From a virus (Duplodnaviria > Caudoviricetes), in the IMG/VR virus record IMGVR_UViG_3300043177_000122, positions 96,001 to 160,000 of that record: a stretch of DNA of 64,000 nt; one strand, given 5' to 3'. The notes beneath the pieces are model-generated. The model ran no database searches. It saw only the letters and a list, made by a program, of their open reading frames with translations, and was not told the origin of the DNA. Shown piece after piece: positions 2-49,240 of this stretch (within the stretch, counting starts at the first letter, position 1; each line of letters starts with the position of its first letter). The position numbers and the translations under genes were made by a program.

Positions 2-835
2 GCTGATTTTCTTTCTCTTTTGCGTACCATTGGCCCCTTTTTCTCTGTTAATAATATGTTGCGAGCTGAGTGCTTCAAAAGTCGAATGGAGCATGGACTC
101 TCATTTTTAGAGTTCAATTACATGATTATGCAGGCGCAAGACTTCCGAATGCTTCATTTGGAAGAGGGCTGCATTTTACAAATTGGCGGTGATGATCAGT
201 GGTCTAATATCTTAGCTGGTATTGATTTGATTCACAAAAAGCATGGGCACGAAGTATTCGGTCTAACACTTCCTTTGTTAGTCAATTCTGATGGAATCAA
301 AATGGGAAAGACGGAAAAAGGAGCGGTGTGGTTGGGTCCGGCTAAAACTTCTCCCTCTGAGTTTTTTCAATTTTGGAGAAATATTCCTGACGATCAAGTA
401 GAAAAATGTCTTCTTTTCTTTACTGATATGAAACCGGGTGAGTTGATTGAATCGTCTTTTAATATCAACCATCACAAAAAAAATCTAGCATTTGAAATTA
501 CGAAATTGGTTCATGGCGAATCAATAGCACGACAGGCGCTCGAGCAGGCAGAAGCCTTGTTCGAGAAACAAGATACTTCTACTCTTGAAGCAATTTCTAT
601 CCAAGAAGGCACGCACATTCTTGATTTACTTATGGTATGTGGTTTTGCAAAATCACGTACAGGTGGTAGAAATTTAATCAATAATAGAGGGATCTCAATA
701 AACCAAGATGTTCTTACTGACCCTACGATTGTAATTTCCAGAAATCAGTTTGGAAATGAATTAATTGTGAAAAAGGGCAAGAAGAATTTCTGTCGCCTGC
801 TTATTGAGGATAAATGCCAAGACCAAGTACCGTAA
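2..835 (+). CDS. tyrS: Tyrosyl-tRNA synthetase, 5'-truncated by window edge
   Basis: QIGGDDQW and KMGKT class I motifs, C-terminal S4-like domain; frame is open from base 2. Confidence 0.93.
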   Translation, partial: ADFLSLLRTIGPFFSVNNMLRAECFKSRMEHGLSFLEFNYMIMQAQDFRMLHLEEGCILQIGGDDQWSNILAGIDLIHKKHGHEVFGLTLPLLVNSDGIKMGKTEKGAVWLGPAKTSPSEFFQFWRNIPDDQVEKCLLFFTDMKPGELIESSFNINHHKKNLAFEITKLVHGESIARQALEQAEALFEKQDTSTLEAISIQEGTHILDLLMVCGFAKSRTGGRNLINNRGISINQDVLTDPTIVISRNQFGNELIVKKGKKNFCRLLIEDKCQDQVP

Positions 836-5206: not shown

Positions 5207-5518
5207 ATGAGAAAGACACCTATGACTGGTGCTACCCCGCGCTATCGATTAGAGGGAGTGAAGGGTGAGTTTTTTGATGTATTTGCTAAAAAAGCAAATG
5301 CTATTAAAGCGGCTATTCAAATGGCTACTGAATATCCAGGAACTACATTTCTAGTGGTTCGCACAACTTTTCTCAAAAAGAAAATTGTGTTTCGATTCAA
5401 ATTAGAAATTGAGTTTCAGTTTGACGATTTACAAGACGTTTATCGTGGAATCCTTGACGTTTATCAAGGCAAATTAGATAAAACCAAATATTGGAGAAAA
5501 CCAGATGTTTCTACTTGA
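5207..5518 (+). CDS. Hypothetical protein
   Basis: 103-aa ORF. Confidence 0.6.
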   Translation: MRKTPMTGATPRYRLEGVKGEFFDVFAKKANAIKAAIQMATEYPGTTFLVVRTTFLKKKIVFRFKLEIEFQFDDLQDVYRGILDVYQGKLDKTKYWRKPDVST

Positions 5519-35661: not shown

Positions 35662-36574
35662 GCAAACTCTCCTCAATCAAATTTTCCACAGCATGATGTG
35701 CTGTTACAGTACTTACAGTGATTTTGGACGTATAATGAATAGTGTCTCTAAACTTATCTCCTAACCAAAAGGTATTCTCTTTTGCTGGTATCATATTAGA
35801 GAAGCAAACATGTTTTTTGGGCTTTCCGAATAAATTATCTTGAATAAAAGAGAATGTATAAGCGCCCGATGCCCTACCAACTATAACATCACAATACGTA
35901 CTAACAAATCCATTTTCATTTAAATCGAAACCATTTTTACCGATGATAGCCGATGAATATATAATGTTAGAATGTTGTGATTGGTTAAACTGACTTTCAT
36001 GATTGGTAAGTATAAATAGTTTATCTTGGTGCTTTGAAGCTAGGCTAATTACAATTGGTAATAGTGGGAAATTATCTGCCTGCCCCGAGAGTGCATTACC
36101 ATTTGCAATTAATACTTTCATTCCGGGTCTTTTTTCCAAAAAATCTTTTGCAGATCCAATATGATACTTAGTGAAATCTATTTGAGGAAACCACTTGGTA
36201 GGATCTGACTCAATTTCTGATAATGTGAAATTAAAATAGTTCTTGCAAATTTCATCAAACATAACATACAAGCAATCAAATGTGATTCCATATGTGTTCA
36301 TATAATAGAAGCGGCGCTGAGCATACCAAGTATTAATGAACATAGTATCTCCCCTTACAAACACTCCTTCATGTTCATGCCAGTTAAGCGGAATTACATT
36401 ATATCCTAAGTCAGGTATGTCGGCAATACAGTTAGAATTATTCTTATGAGAGTATGAAATATTTACATCTGGAAATCTATGTTTAAAAGCAAGAGATAGT
36501 TTTCTAACAAACTCTCTAGATACATGTATGTCTCCATTGTGAAAATGGTTATAGAAAACTATATTTTTATACAT
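35654..36574 (-). CDS. Putative glycosyltransferase (GT-B-like)
   Basis: HNGDIH N-terminal motif, DVIVGRASG; island context. Confidence 0.5.
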   Translation of the reverse strand: MYKNIVFYNHFHNGDIHVSREFVRKLSLAFKHRFPDVNISYSHKNNSNCIADIPDLGYNVIPLNWHEHEGVFVRGDTMFINTWYAQRRFYYMNTYGITFDCLYVMFDEICKNYFNFTLSEIESDPTKWFPQIDFTKYHIGSAKDFLEKRPGMKVLIANGNALSGQADNFPLLPIVISLASKHQDKLFILTNHESQFNQSQHSNIIYSSAIIGKNGFDLNENGFVSTYCDVIVGRASGAYTFSFIQDNLFGKPKKHVCFSNMIPAKENTFWLGDKFRDTIHYTSKITVSTVTAHHAVENLIEESLHV

Positions 36575-42127: not shown

Positions 42128-42709
42128 ATGTTGCCCTCAAAGATTCGCAGAAGGATACTTAATAAATTGGCCCAAGGCGTCCTGGGCTCACCTGCGTCTC
42201 CACCTTTCCCAACGTCTCCATCGTCTCCTAATGCTCCTACAGAGCCATCTTCGACCATGGCCATCAAGAAGGGGCTTTCACCACCAGCGTCCGATATGAT
42301 GAATTTATCTATTGGATGGGGTACTTGGGCGCAATATATAAATAGTTTAGTAGGGAAATTGGATAAGGCCATTATTGCTGGAACAGAGCAAGAGTATAAT
42401 TTTAAAGATTTGTTCCAAAATAGGTTTCCATCTGGGGTAGATACTAATTATGCTCCACCAAATCCTACAAAAGATCTTATTGCTTTTGGAAGGCTGATAT
42501 TCCAAAATATTATGAATAGCGGTATCCCATTCACAGGGCCTCTAAAGAATGAAGATATGCGTGCTAAAGTGGATTTGCTATTAGGCGCCCCCGAATTAAC
42601 TAAACTGCAACAAGTTAATCAAGCTGGCCCGTTACGTAATGTAGATGTGGATTTGAGTACCGTTAGAAGCGATTTACTTACTCTGAAAAATTCTATTCCA
42701 GTCACATAA
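42128..42709 (+). CDS. Hypothetical (possibly virion) protein with N-terminal ILNKLAQ motif
   Basis: 193-aa ORF; Pro/Ser linker after KLAQ. Confidence 0.65.
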   Translation: MLPSKIRRRILNKLAQGVLGSPASPPFPTSPSSPNAPTEPSSTMAIKKGLSPPASDMMNLSIGWGTWAQYINSLVGKLDKAIIAGTEQEYNFKDLFQNRFPSGVDTNYAPPNPTKDLIAFGRLIFQNIMNSGIPFTGPLKNEDMRAKVDLLLGAPELTKLQQVNQAGPLRNVDVDLSTVRSDLLTLKNSIPVT

Positions 42710-45227: not shown

Positions 45228-45578
45228 GGGGATGACATAGATTCGACGTGGTTTCGAATTATCGAAATGATGCAAACAGAGGATGATTGCCCCTCCAAAA
45301 GTAATCAACGTATAAATGCAAACGATAATGCATTTGCAATGGCCGCCTGAGGGCACCATTCGTTCCTAGATAAGACTGCTTGAGTAATCAATGGAACGCC
45401 AACCCACAAAGCTGGTTGATGAATATGGCTACGATGTTCAACAACAAGATTAACAGTAGATAGCTAGCCGGAGCGAATTCTTGCAGCGTTGTTGATAACG
45501 CCAATATCAACTAAGTTTGTGAATGAGTTTTGATAAGGGCATATCGCGGACTCGGCTGCAATGCCGACATCTCCACCA
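45228..45578 (+). ncRNA. ssrA: tmRNA, tag (A)ANDNAFAMAA*
   Basis: GGGGATG/CATCTCC-ACCA acceptor with G3.U70, ATTCGAC near the 5' end, tag ORF 45318-45350. Confidence 0.92.
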
Positions 45579-46171: not shown

Positions 46172-46634
46172 TAAAACGCCCGCAATTCCTGAAGAAAGAG
46201 CTGTGGGCGATTTTGCTTTTAGGCGCTCCTTCTATTATCATCCCGGAGTAGACGTTTATTGCGGATTTGGGCAAGAAATACAGGCGATTGAAGAAGGTGA
46301 AGTTGTTCACATGGAAAACTTTACTGGGCCTAATGCTAATCCTCCTAGTCCATGGTGGCTAGAAACCTGGAGTATTCTTATTGAAGGAGCTTCAGGCGTT
46401 TTAGGATATTGTGAAATTAAACCATTTCCACATATTAAAATTGGAGTCAAGGTTAAAGCGGGCGAACTAATCGCTACTGTTATTCCTGTTCTTAAAAAAG
46501 ATAAAGGTAATGGTACGACCATGCTTCACTTTGAACACTACGAAACTGGAACTAGACACCATGTAACGTGGGAATTAGACACCATCAAACCCGAAGAATT
46601 AAAAAACTCTCGTTATTTGCTAGAAAAAAAATAA
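46152..46634 (+). CDS. M23-family peptidase-like protein
   Basis: HPGVD (HxxxD) and MLHFE motifs. Confidence 0.7.
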   Translation: MKWPLRDKTPAIPEERAVGDFAFRRSFYYHPGVDVYCGFGQEIQAIEEGEVVHMENFTGPNANPPSPWWLETWSILIEGASGVLGYCEIKPFPHIKIGVKVKAGELIATVIPVLKKDKGNGTTMLHFEHYETGTRHHVTWELDTIKPEELKNSRYLLEKK

Positions 46635-46663
46635 TCAACCAATAATTGGATATATACATCGTT

Positions 46664-47260
46664 ATGAGCTATCTATAGAACCATCTAATTAAGCAAATGA
46701 AAGAGTGTCCACAAACGGATACTCAATCTGTGTATGAACACGGTGTCTCTGTAAAAGAGCACATTTTTGAATTGATTTCATTTTTAAAAACAGGACAAGT
46801 GCCTGAAGGTTGGAGATTACCTGACTGGATGCATATGTATCGAGAGCAGATTCTAGCCTCGCTTCTTCTAGAGGATATCATCAAAGCCTACGCAGTCTTC
46901 CATGATTGTGGTAAACCTTATTGTCTAATAATAGATGATAAGGGCAGAAGACATTTTCCTGACCATCCAGAGATATCACACAACGTTTGGCTTGCTGTTA
47001 GCAATAACAAAACGATTGCTAAGTTAATTCTTATGGATATGAAAATTCATACTATGAAGGCAGCAGATGTTGAAGAATTCTGTCAGCATCAAGAAGCTAT
47101 CACTCTCCTCATTGCAGGATTAGCTGAAGTACATAGTAATGCAAAGATGTTTGGCGGCATTGATTCTGAATCCTTCAAAATCAAATGGAGTCAAATTAAC
47201 AAACGTGGCAAAGCAATTTGTCGTAAACTATTTGGAGAACATCATGTGTCTATAGGTTAA
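46664..47260 (+). CDS. HD-domain phosphohydrolase with in-frame TAG at codon 5 (46676-46678); downstream in-frame ATG at 46697
   Basis: EHG...FHDCGK...FPDH; ATG 46664 lies 7 nt after the GATATATA motif. Confidence 0.75.
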
Positions 47261-47594
47261 AGAAGGCGATAAGCTTTATGTTATTACTCGTGCAGATTTG
47301 GAACCGGGTTATCAAGCAGTGCAGAGTATGCATGCATTGAGACAATTTACGGCAGAGCATCCTGAGGTCGATAAGGCATGGTTTGAGCAATCAAACTATC
47401 TTGGACTTCTTTCGGTGCAGAATGAACAAGAACTCCTGCAGTTGTTAGAACAAGCAAACAACCAAGGGATTCAAGCTTCAGCTTTCCGAGAACCCGATAT
47501 TGATAATCAAATGACAGCCATTGCGTTATCACCTGGCCCTAAGTCTAAAAAGCTTTGTAGCCGTTTACCACTAGCATTAAGAGGTAAGCCATGA
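47244..47594 (+). CDS. Pth2-like peptidyl-tRNA hydrolase with in-frame TAG at codon 4 (47253-47255)
   Basis: GGAGA SD, ATG TGT CTA TAG GTT..., then KLYVITRADL...QAVQSMHA...REPD...TAIAL. Confidence 0.78.
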
Positions 47595-47842
47595 GCAAAT
47601 GGATTGATAAAGAGCGTGGGCCCGAATGTTTCTGTGGCATGCCAACTGGAGTATATATTAGTGAAGATGGTAAGGCATGGTTAATGTGTATCTTTCATGA
47701 ATATGAAGCGGGAGCAATGTTCCCGCTCCCTAGAGATGGAAGACCTGATGCCTGGCCTGATATTCCTCGTGAAGAGATAAATGAGCTAATGAAACGAGGA
47801 GCAGAAGAAGATGAACAAGAACCTATTTCAGAAGATGGATAA
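47591..47842 (+). CDS. Hypothetical protein
   Basis: PECFCG...CIFH; coupled ORF. Confidence 0.6.
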   Translation: MSKWIDKERGPECFCGMPTGVYISEDGKAWLMCIFHEYEAGAMFPLPRDGRPDAWPDIPREEINELMKRGAEEDEQEPISEDG

Positions 47843-47996
47843 AAAAGAATACGATTACTGCTCATGTTCGGGCCATTGCTGTGACAAACCAGAGCGATTT
47901 TGCCCTGTTCACGTTTGCGAAGCAGAAAATTTCTGTGAAGAATGCTTTGTTTCAGAATGTGCTAATTGCCACAAATCATGTGCGTGTGACCTATGA
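47835..47996 (+). CDS. Cys-rich metallothionein-like small protein
   Basis: 12 Cys and 3 His in 53 aa. Confidence 0.55.
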   Translation: MDKKEYDYCSCSGHCCDKPERFCPVHVCEAENFCEECFVSECANCHKSCACDL

Positions 47997-48346
47997 AAAA
48001 GACTAGTATAGCATCTTTGCAAGAACGTTTAACTGATTGGTTGCCATGGGATGAAGCTATGTATCAGGTTGGAGCTACTCTTGGTTTCTGGCCTGAGTTT
48101 GGCGCACCTCATGATAACGATCCGTGGCATGGCGTTAAAGACGTTATGCACACTAGAAAACATGAACCGCTAGGTGCTATACTGGAATGGTTTCTCAAAG
48201 ATTTGGTTGAAGTGGGTTGTCTTGAATCAAAAACAGTCGAACTTGAATTCGAATTTTCAAGTGGGAAAAAGACCACGATTCCAATCGCGCATTATCGTTG
48301 GAATGTAAAATATAAAGGACCGGCAGATTTAATATCAATGTTATAA
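47993..48346 (+). CDS. Hypothetical protein
   Basis: 117-aa coupled ORF. Confidence 0.6.
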   Translation: MKKTSIASLQERLTDWLPWDEAMYQVGATLGFWPEFGAPHDNDPWHGVKDVMHTRKHEPLGAILEWFLKDLVEVGCLESKTVELEFEFSSGKKTTIPIAHYRWNVKYKGPADLISML

Positions 48347-48347
48347 T
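48339..48347 (+). promoter_or_regulatory. Extended -10 promoter for the CUA-tRNA pair
   Basis: TG-T-TATAAT, 5 nt before the first tRNA. Confidence 0.6.
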
Positions 48348-48352
48348 GTAAT

Positions 48353-48426
48353 CCGCTCTTGGTATAGTGGCTGTGCCGTCGACTCTAAATCGACAGAGCC
48401 GTGTTCAAATCACGGAGAGCGGGCCA
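48353..48426 (+). tRNA. Amber suppressor tRNA(CUA), C1-G72, G73
   Basis: CCGCTCT/AGAGCGG acceptor, perfect GTCGA/TCGAC stem with loop CTCTAAA, TTCAAAT T-loop, CCA. Confidence 0.88.
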
Positions 48427-48436
48427 AATAATATAT

Positions 48437-48508
48437 GCGCCGTTAGCTCAGTGGTAGAGCGGGAGCCTCTAAAACTCACGGTCGAGGGTTCAAATCCCTC
48501 ACGGCGCA
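48437..48508 (+). tRNA. Amber suppressor tRNA(CUA), G1-C72, A73, CCA not encoded
   Basis: GCGCCGT/ACGGCGC acceptor, canonical D-arm, loop CTCTAAA on a weak stem (GAG/CTC plus two mismatches). Confidence 0.78.
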
Positions 48509-48537
48509 CAAACTACTATTATGATATATAATCTAGC

Positions 48538-48720
48538 ATGAACAAATTTATGACTAGATTAGAAATGCAAACACGTGTTAGAACAATTCGAGAAGAATTG
48601 GAAAATAGGAATAAAACTGGTATGGCCAAAATGGCAACCGACGATGGTGCCCCTATATCTACTGAAGACTTGCAAAATGAAATGTTTTCATTGATTTACA
48701 GATTGAGTAAATTTGAATAA
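48538..48720 (+). CDS. Hypothetical protein
   Basis: 60 aa; GATATATA 7 nt before ATG. Confidence 0.6.
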   Translation: MNKFMTRLEMQTRVRTIREELENRNKTGMAKMATDDGAPISTEDLQNEMFSLIYRLSKFE

Positions 48721-48727
48721 GTAGGCT

Positions 48728-49240
48728 TCAAATTAGTGATTTCTTTCGCAATCGTTTACGAAGTGCTGGATCACTACATCCGAGTTTTTTTGAAACTGCA
48801 AATATGCTATTTTCAGCAATCATTTTTATGAGTGATTGATCATCTGGCCAATTAAATCTATCTTGGGTTGTTCGACAATGATTGCATAGCCCAGATACCG
48901 ACACTCTACTTCTATAATTTCCACATTTTTTGCAAGTATAATTTCCCGTTCGTTTTCTATTTATCGCATTACCACCAGCATAGTTTTCCGTTTGAGAGTG
49001 ACAGTTAGGGCAAAGAAATCTTAAATTCTCTATTCTATGATCTTTGTTATCTCCATTAATGTGATCAACTTGTAATGTAAGAATGTTTCCATTCCACTCT
49101 GGCCCTAATCCACAGATTGCGCATTTATATGGCAACAGATTGTACTTCAAGATTTTAGTTTTAAGATGTGATCTAGTAAAAGTAGAATTTTTTACTAATG
49201 CTTCCTCAATTGGGATTTCGTGGTCGCCTTTTTTATACAT
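48728..49240 (-). mobile_element. HNH homing endonuclease with C-terminal HTH
   Basis: LQVDHINGD...NLRFLCPNCH. Confidence 0.85.

Follow-up and report, generated by a model that had tools for sequence, protein, structure and literature searches.

Two CUA-anticodon tRNAs of a freshwater jumbo phage as putative suppressors of conserved early UAG codons in HD-hydrolase-like and Pth2-like genes

Laboratory amber suppressors of Escherichia coli include supE from tRNA-Gln, su7 from tRNA-Trp, and a synthetic tRNA(CUA) series. Normanly, Kleina and Miller (1990) reportedly found many CUA tRNAs to be charged by GlnRS or LysRS, both of which read U35. An in-frame UGA serves as a stop-codon sensor in prfB, with autoregulation by frameshifting and release factor. 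Phage suppressor tRNAs and stop-codon recoding are already known as well. The crAss-like and Lak phages use code 15, in which TAG is read as Gln via phage suppressor tRNAs (bioRxiv 10.1101/2021.08.26.457843; PMC9523058). Suppressor tRNAs without a known target have been reported for phages XacN1 (two CUA tRNAs per terminal repeat) and RsoM2USA (one) (PMC5852040, PMC8504454), and a synthetic feed-forward loop has been built in which a gene and a suppressor tRNA are co-induced (PMC7969014). Here we describe a tandem pair of tRNAs with the anticodon CUA, tRNA-a and tRNA-b, together with an HD-hydrolase-like and a Pth2-like gene that carry an early in-frame TAG. They lie in a stretch of 64,000 nucleotides (the window), bases 96001-160000 of a 358,993-bp IMG/VR phage record (359 kb; freshwater), whose completeness is estimated at 83%. 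The whole record is called G000, relative genomes G001, G002, and G004, and relative or comparison loci L001, L002, etc.

It appears probable from comparison with related loci that the two tRNAs are working suppressors in a standard-code phage, with the UAGs at codon 5 of the HD gene and codon 4 of the Pth2-like gene as their conserved clients. In view of the conserved client TAGs, which almost always have a CUA tRNA close by, the most likely role of the tRNAs is that of the key to an amber-locked module. The client TAGs are located 1.1 to 1.7 kb upstream of the CUA tRNAs on the same strand.

46664..47260, + strand: HD-hydrolase-like gene with TAG at 46676-46678 (codon 5), likely client 1 (TAG conservation)
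47244..47594, + strand: Pth2-like gene with TAG at 47253-47255 (codon 4), likely client 2 (PF01981; TAG conservation)
48353..48426, + strand: tRNA-a, anticodon CUA, C1-G72, G73, 4-nt variable loop, CCA encoded (ARAGORN; Rfam, 47.2 bits)
48427..48436, + strand: 10-nt spacer between tRNA-a and tRNA-b (invariant window versus L001)
48437..48509, + strand: tRNA-b, anticodon CUA, G1-C72, A73 at 48508, no encoded CCA (ARAGORN; Rfam, 65.7 bits)

XacN1 and RsoM2USA are the closest described cases. They too are jumbo phages that keep the standard code, encode many tRNAs with one or two CUA tRNAs among them, and have an HD homologue with an early TAG. The CUA tRNAs of XacN1 are about 200 kb distant from the client, whereas the window tRNAs share an operon with theirs. 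No client was found in the XacN1 and RsoM2USA papers because just extensions past annotated stops were examined; here the TAG is at the 5' end of the gene. As in the code-15 phages, a phage CUA tRNA would override a host stop, and for those phages it is proposed that in-frame stops delay the translation of chosen genes. However, code-15 phages recode tens to hundreds of late genes, which code 11 fragments, and here only two neighboring genes carry the TAG. The E. coli laboratory suppressors also have CUA in a CU-CUA-AA loop but are single-base mutants of a resident tRNA, whereas the genes described here are old, conserved, and paired. As in prfB and the synthetic loop, an early in-frame stop would tie output to the activity that decodes or terminates there. 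The difference from prfB would be the use of a tRNA rather than a frameshift or release factor, and unlike the engineered loop, this system would be natural. Neither a natural tRNA-based version of the stop-codon sensor loop nor a link of standard-code phage CUA tRNAs to amber-locked HD or Pth2-like genes was found in the searchable literature.

That both tRNAs are real and carry CUA, as claimed in the preliminary description of the window, was borne out by ARAGORN, which called cloverleaves with the anticodon cta at 48353-48426 and 48437-48509, and by Rfam scores above the RF00005 gathering score of 29. Sequence reading showed the D-loop GG and a TTCAAAT T loop in both. The 7-nt anticodon loop C-U-CUA-A-A, with U33, a purine at 37, and CUA at 34-36, is an amber-reading loop. 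The two tRNAs are thus putative amber suppressors by anticodon and loop, and the conserved in-frame TAG clients nearby would fit insertion at UAG, indirectly. The structural details given earlier were also correct, namely, C1-G72, G73, G9, and a 4-nt variable loop (AGAG) in tRNA-a and G1-C72, A73, and a canonical D arm in tRNA-b. CCA is encoded in tRNA-a; tRNA-b is followed by CAAA, so its CCA is not encoded. The minimum-free-energy fold of tRNA-a is the cloverleaf (z = -3.6). A detail absent from the preliminary description is the short anticodon stem of tRNA-b, in which just three Watson-Crick pairs are bordered by G27.A43 and C31.A39 mismatches.

The two scaffolds are unrelated, their best within-genome identities being 50/74 and 54/73, and neither tRNA has a close sense-codon paralogue in the phage genome, which encodes 55 other tRNAs. 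Region 46600-48560 was reproduced without difference by contigs of two freshwater metagenome runs (depths 13 and 27), which may be the source samples of the window, and the CTA anticodon was retained in all relatives and orthologues compared. This agreement excludes the sequencing error that the preliminary description had already discounted on account of the two scaffolds. The ARAGORN label tRNA-Pyl is due to the anticodon alone; the D-loop GG, the standard T loop, and the 4- and 5-nt variable loops rule out a Pyl body, although PylS was not searched for. Typical of tRNA-Pyl would be a variable loop of 3 nt, a small D loop that lacks G18G19, an anticodon stem of 6 bp, and accompanying PylS and pylBCD. 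A megablast search of the tRNA/operon locus against GenBank phages gave no match, and a search for RNA data sets holding the locus listed none.

Comparison with relatives indicates that tRNA-a and tRNA-b are real genes under selection. Between the window and L001, the nearest relative (Pth2-like protein 95% identical), the only differences in tRNA-a are two base pairs changed on both sides, with pairing preserved (U28-A42 to C-G and C50-G64 to U-A); no unpaired change was seen. For tRNA-b, compensated changes were present in the anticodon and T stems, plus three substitutions in the T loop. The 10-nt spacer was invariant, though the neighboring coding DNA had diverged with indels. At L100, the tRNA-a body has a different, again self-complementary, anticodon stem. 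An alignment of the tRNA-b family (six sequences) had 92% of cells paired and seven pairs changed on both sides, and the observed pairing values were reached by 0 of 500 shuffles. Positions 27-43 were unpaired in five of the six members, and so were positions 31-39. According to a published report, UAG read-through by a tRNA with the anticodon CUA improves when its 27-43 pair is unpinned (PMC13092985). The G27.A43 of tRNA-b is this kind of pair and counts for a suppressor function. An anticodon arm, GGAGC-CUCUAAA-ACUC or its AGAGC or GGAGU variants, is nearly shared by tRNA-b and the CUA tRNAs of Arash (L140:4976-5050), XacN1 (L137), and GAP32 (L134:1274-1346), whose bodies are otherwise different. 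Shared ancestry could explain this, as could convergence on an arm that suppresses efficiently.

The early TAG of the Pth2-like gene is conserved. The start M-x(-x)-TAG was present in 12 of 12 IMG/VR relatives, down to 38% identity, each with at least one CUA tRNA within 4 kb of the gene, and TAG and CUA tRNA likewise occurred together in L100 and in the huge-phage records L015 and L016. The gene overlaps the HD gene, and its ATG at 47244 has GGAGA 5 nt upstream. The only ATG, GTG, or TTG start after the TAG is TTG 47298, which would remove the first strand of the fold, since the PF01981 match starts 6 residues past the TAG. A start upstream of the TAG is therefore needed.

The TAG of the HD gene is kept in eight of eight close homologues and also in L066, LR745206, XacN1, CM1, and RsoM2USA. 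Codons from the TAG to the next ATG show synonymous changes among the homologues, and the helix after the TAG aligns with the N terminus of TAG-free homologues. The starts read M-K-TAG in XacN1 ORF364 (an HD-Pth2 fusion), M-K-S-TAG in the RsoM2USA homologue, and M-K-TAG in Stenotrophomonas phage CM1, whose protein contains no Met from the TAG up to the conserved core. The canonical Pth2 of XacN1 (ORF295) has no TAG; its client is ORF364. In other cultured phages, the TAG is in the Pth2-like part, with M-L-TAG in Salmonella phage Arash, M-T-TAG in Acinetobacter phage ME3, and M-K-TAG in Tenacibaculum phage pT24. Five cultured Rak2-like phages (GAP32, fHe-Yen9-04, XbC2, Kaldavass, and CBB) have a TAG at codon 47 of the HD gene. 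This codon precedes the HD motif, so the whole HD protein of these phages needs read-through.

A CUA tRNA was present in all seven cultured phages checked (XacN1, RsoM2USA, GAP32, fHe-Yen9-04, Arash, ME3, and pT24), compared with a background of 13 of 80 tRNA-rich viral loci (16%). It usually lies 0.5 to 3 kb from the client (about 2.3 to 2.5 kb downstream in GAP32 and fHe-Yen9-04), with the XacN1 distance as given above. The window belongs to the same class, which was defined in this analysis and not in the literature by a TAG within the Pth2-like gene, the HD gene, or both and by a CUA tRNA encoded by that phage, usually no more than a few kb away. Client genes are split or truncated at the TAG in several GenBank records: GAP32_398/399 (L121:1474-2040), fHe-Yen9-04 g408/g409 (L120:1480-2046), Arash gp84c (L140:3838-3990), pT24 BPT24_235 (L138:3752-4570), and XacN1 ORF364 (L118:1510-2349). 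The CUA tRNA of Arash (L140:4976-5050) is annotated as tRNA-Phe. In L017 (LR745208), the Pth2-like gene has no in-frame TAG and is directly followed by a UUA (ochre-reading) tRNA at 5411-5487. An in-frame TAA is found in L017 16 codons upstream of the likely GTG start.

The phage keeps the standard code and is not recoded genome-wide. Open reading frames (ORFs) of at least 100 amino acids cover 90.5% of the genome in code 11, and the gain in coverage from TAG as sense was small, below that from TGA or TAA as sense. Unusually long open frames after TAG-ending ORFs were not in excess over other ORFs, and neither an excess of ATG-x-TAG leaders nor an enrichment of ATG-x-x-TAG leaders was found across the genome. 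These results led to the rejection of code 15. A related reading, that the phage is making a general code switch, with TAG as an amino acid codon in late genes, or is at an early stage of it with the upstream TAGs as the first recoded sites, is judged unlikely. Of 445 ORFs in the crude calls, 26 end in TAG, which makes it the rarest stop. By the same calls, it closes 21 of the 195 ORFs located within the first 123 kb but 5 of the 250 in the remaining 123 to 359 kb (Fisher P = 1.3e-4). This pattern resembles the recoding route proposed by Borges et al., on which stop-codon depletion is followed by suppressor gain (bioRxiv 10.1101/2021.08.26.457843), and as the record is 83% complete, unseen genes exist. 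However, the coverage and leader results above speak against a switch, and the TAG recurs in just this pair of gene families in phages as distant as those of Tenacibaculum, Salmonella, and Xanthomonas, which indicates a targeted and not a drifting use. The five-fold depletion of TAG stops at 123 to 359 kb would also fit a genome living with an active suppressor.

Several observations weigh against read-through of the client TAGs as the function of the pair. A strong suppressor would be costly, as 26 ordinary ORFs end in TAG. L018 has the TAG and no CUA tRNA within 5 kb. An HD homologue was absent from ten other CUA-bearing phage records, and PF01981 was also absent from the five most complete of them; the CUA tRNAs of these ten records must have other uses. 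The HD gene has a conserved Met 5 to 10 codons past the TAG as a possible start without read-through, and the codon after the Pth2-like TAG is nearly always GTN or ATN, so that re-initiation at a weak start is possible. In mycobacteriophages HyRo and Phabba, the TAG directly precedes the annotated GTG start, for which the Shine-Dalgarno spacing is better. Both were left out of the carrier counts because their CUA calls by ARAGORN are doubtful, with ambiguous 9-nt loops; the HyRo candidate is unannotated, and that of Phabba is annotated Arg(tct).

The last three of these points, together with the phage-encoded IF-3, would agree with TAGs that are true stops of leader ORFs of 3 to 5 codons, after which the hydrolases re-initiate, and with CUA tRNAs that are relics, decoys for anticodon nucleases, or nontranslational RNAs. 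IF-3 is the factor that polices non-AUG starts. This reading seems very unlikely. The stop is always TAG, never TAA or TGA, over dozens of lineages, despite TAG being the rarest stop here, and the link to CUA tRNAs contrasts with the 16% background. The codon-47 TAG of the Rak2-like phages cannot be a leader stop. The codon following the TAG is AAC in L100 and AAC or AAT in HD genes, and the CUA tRNAs show compensatory evolution.

Two promoter-like elements accompany the suppressor module.

46649..46656, + strand: promoter-like GATATATA, 7 nt before the HD gene ATG (near-leaderless; sequence reading)
48339..48347, + strand: extended -10-like TGTTATAAT, 5 nt before tRNA-a (overlaps the TAA that ends ORF 47993-48346)

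The motif and spacing of GATATATA are also present in L001-L004 and L006. TGTTATAAT is a perfect extended -10 and fits a phage motif, (T/G)G(A/T)TATA(A/T)(T/A), that precedes the first tRNA of 14 other clusters by 8 to 22 nt (mostly 8 to 14) and also stands 7 to 8 nt before some ATGs. The motif looks like an extended -10 promoter whose transcripts would have little or no leader. Of the seven TGNTATAAT sites that fall outside the crude gene calls, six stand 5 to 14 nt before a tRNA or coding sequence. The fit of TGTTATAAT to the recurrent motif and the placement of the TGNTATAAT sites make a real promoter at 48339 plausible. Because the hexamer ends just 5 nt short of C1, a transcript initiated from TGTTATAAT would begin at or inside tRNA-a. 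The preliminary description had proposed a dedicated promoter that allows separate timing of the tRNAs, and the second part of this proposal was weakened. TGTTATAAT arose where the upstream ORF ends, by four substitutions around its stop codon; the equivalent stretch of L001 is ACACTTTGA, and the motif is absent in L001 and L100. In L100, the CUA pair begins 8 nt after the Pth2-like stop codon. No terminator-like site was found on the + strand at 46649-48510. Separate timing is not a conserved feature, since the motif is missing in the nearest relatives, and co-transcription of the tRNAs with the operon appears to be the conserved state.

If the pair acts as suppressors of the client UAGs, the operon would be transcribed from the GATATATA promoter at 46649 into an RNA that holds the locked genes plus their keys, probably with a second transcription start at 48339 in this phage. 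The tRNAs would be excised, tRNA-b would receive its CCA, and host synthetases would charge both. Ribosomes starting at 46664 and 47244 would halt after 3 to 4 residues until mature charged CUA tRNA accumulates; afterwards, the early UAG would be passed and both hydrolases made. Without a suppressor, just a peptide of 3 to 4 residues would result, so the output of HD and Pth2-like enzymes would track suppressor activity. A UAG at the very start of a gene would cause little waste and leave no truncated protein. The UAGs lie at apparently residue-tolerant sites (N-terminal tail or variable loop), which would leave tRNA bodies and discriminators free to vary between phages. Homologues differ in the residue they have opposite the codon-47 TAG (Q, K, Q, H, T, M, F, S, F, V, and V). 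This fits a site that tolerates any residue, and the inserted amino acid cannot be deduced from this alignment column.

The module is part of a 7-kb island that holds, besides the CUA tRNAs and the HD and Pth2-like genes, genes for transfer-messenger RNA (tmRNA), IF-3, and a Thg1-like protein.

45228..45578, + strand: phage tmRNA gene (Rfam RF00023, 104 bits)
47591..48346, + strand: two small ORFs between clients and tRNAs, 47591-47842 and 47993-48346 (ORF list)

A tmRNA gene is also located upstream in L002, L005, L006, and L007. The two small ORFs had no Pfam or PHROG match. PHROG 14850 (270 positions) matches the Pth2-like protein at profile positions 6-73 and the HD protein at 86-268 (window 46679-47591), and the HD and Pth2-like domains are fused, in both orders, in XacN1, CM1, and pT24. 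A PDB sequence search with the HD protein gave nothing. The tmRNA, IF-3, and Thg1-like genes of the island and the depletion of TAG stops would suit a phage in which a suppressor is active and its aftermath is dealt with.

The island also bears on whether the host is the main target, such that the suppressors extend UAG-ended host proteins or override a termination-dependent host response. The TAG-gated hydrolases and tmRNA would then clear stalled ribosomes and peptidyl-tRNAs in proportion to suppressor activity. The sharing of the island by the tmRNA, Pth2-like, HD, IF-3, and Thg1-like genes and the tRNAs agrees with this, a UAG early in a gene lends itself to sensing how active a suppressor is, and the CUA tRNAs of phages that lack the module have another use there. 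On the other hand, the 26 TAG-ended ORFs of the phage itself would be affected as well. A main role in the host seems rather unlikely, and it would extend suppression of the client UAGs and not exclude it.

One combination of discriminator bases recurs in the CUA pairs. Among the eight module-bearing phages with two CUA tRNAs, seven combine G73 with A73, and their G73 members have at least four different bodies. The window, L001, and L100 share the tRNA-a body, L002 and L003 have a second G73 body in common, and L007 has a third; the remaining phage is XacN1. The exception is L016, with U73 and A73. In the adjacent CUA tRNAs of XacN1 (L137:548-706; 36047-36205), positions 8-65 are identical, and the differences are confined to the acceptor stem (six of seven pairs) and the discriminator (A73 versus G73). 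This acceptor swap is hard to account for except by selection for two acceptor identities. Two charging identities for the pair, which the earlier suggestion of two amino acids at UAG implied, have thus become plausible, the G73 and A73 tRNAs probably being served by a Gln/Glu-type and a Lys-type synthetase, respectively. Four points are new here: that G73/A73 pairs recur, that XacN1 shows an acceptor swap, that cultured phages have TAGs in their HD genes, and how the promoter is assessed.

The charging identity of each window tRNA was less clear. The 5' half of tRNA-b is shared by 80 viral tRNAs, of which 72 were typed (46 Lys and 17 Arg), and tRNA-b has A73 and U35; its A38-A39 is unlike the usual Lys loop. 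A home-made isotype classifier (cross-validated accuracy, 80%) gave Lys 0.49 and Arg 0.46 for tRNA-b, with a training set biased by the same 5'-half search. Lys is the best guess for tRNA-b. For tRNA-a, the Gln/Glu-type features G73, G3-C70, G10, the 4-nt variable loop, and U35 are present, but C-G at 1-72 and 2-71 is contrary to this type, and tRNA-a is not close to the tRNA-Gln of the phage. The classifier was unstable for tRNA-a (Arg 0.86 by logistic regression versus at most 0.16 by random forest) and not usable, and tRNA-a appears to be without a clear isotype. Overall, tRNA-b looks Lys-like, one of the two acceptor-end types proposed for it earlier.

No GlnRS or GluRS, class II LysRS, or release factor was found in the 359 kb. 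As the phage appears to lack these synthetases, the CUA tRNAs are probably charged by host enzymes. The phage does encode a TyrRS-like protein (about 400 amino acids, S4-like tail; G000 95567-96835, C-terminal part at window 2-835) and a TrpRS-like protein of 319 amino acids (G000 93516-94490), both of class Ib and directly after the Arg tRNA cluster. As a candidate charging enzyme, TrpRS was found in this phage and three relatives with two CUA tRNAs and was absent from seven other records, which are mostly incomplete and interrelated. We regard it as a tentative possibility, on the doubtful side, that the phage deliberately keeps two suppressors of different acceptor identity, with UAG decoded via two synthetases. 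If so, UAG would be a built-in ambiguous codon, with two amino acids at one site. Alternatively, the pair would be a fail-safe, with a lock that can still be opened after a change of host or under an attack on either one of the synthetases or tRNAs.

Descent from tRNA-Trp, which the preliminary description had considered because the loop is one base from that of tRNA-Trp, was not upheld. A su7-type suppressor has A1-U72, G73, and a 5-nt variable loop and replaces or duplicates a resident tRNA-Trp. In contrast, the first pair of tRNA-a is C1-G72 and its variable loop is 4 nt long, and tRNA-b carries A73 and shares its 5' half mostly with tRNA-Lys. The CUA tRNAs are also not a stand-in for a missing tRNA-Trp, as a tRNA-Trp(CCA) is present at the syntenic place, G000 42629-42702, about 53 kb upstream of the window start and directly after tRNA-Ser(CGA). 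It was missed by default ARAGORN and Rfam runs and was recovered by a pattern scan and a relaxed ARAGORN run. This tRNA-Trp is noncanonical, with a 4-bp D stem and 3-nt loop, a C31.A39 mismatch, G73, and CCA. A noncanonical form with compensatory changes in the D and anticodon stems is also found in the 480-kb relative (L109:1466-1540), and two other relatives have a canonical tRNA-Trp at the syntenic place. In the window and G001, tRNA-b resembles the tRNA-Trp encoded by its own genome in the anticodon and T arms, but this likeness was judged not to exceed chance; GAGGG/CCCTC T stems are common, and G002 and G004 depart from the pattern.

Downstream of the pair, the stretch 3' of tRNA-b (AAACTACTA..ATGATATATA; window 48523-48540) is conserved in L002, L003, and L007. 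Immediately beyond the tRNAs and a small ORF that follows them, an HNH endonuclease gene is encoded on the opposite strand (48728-49240, - strand), and it may be a homing element in the tRNA island.

For annotation, the consequence is that several GenBank records split or truncate client genes and two give the CUA tRNA another label. Compact CUA scaffolds may serve genetic-code engineering. The G73/A73 pairs would be natural cases of one codon served by two tRNA identities, and the XacN1 pair is a natural experiment for two-identity reading. For years, reports of CUA tRNAs in phages with the standard code have named no target for them, as the XacN1 paper itself states. A conserved client would make their function testable in cultured phages, whose hosts include Salmonella, Acinetobacter, Cronobacter, Xanthomonas, and Tenacibaculum.

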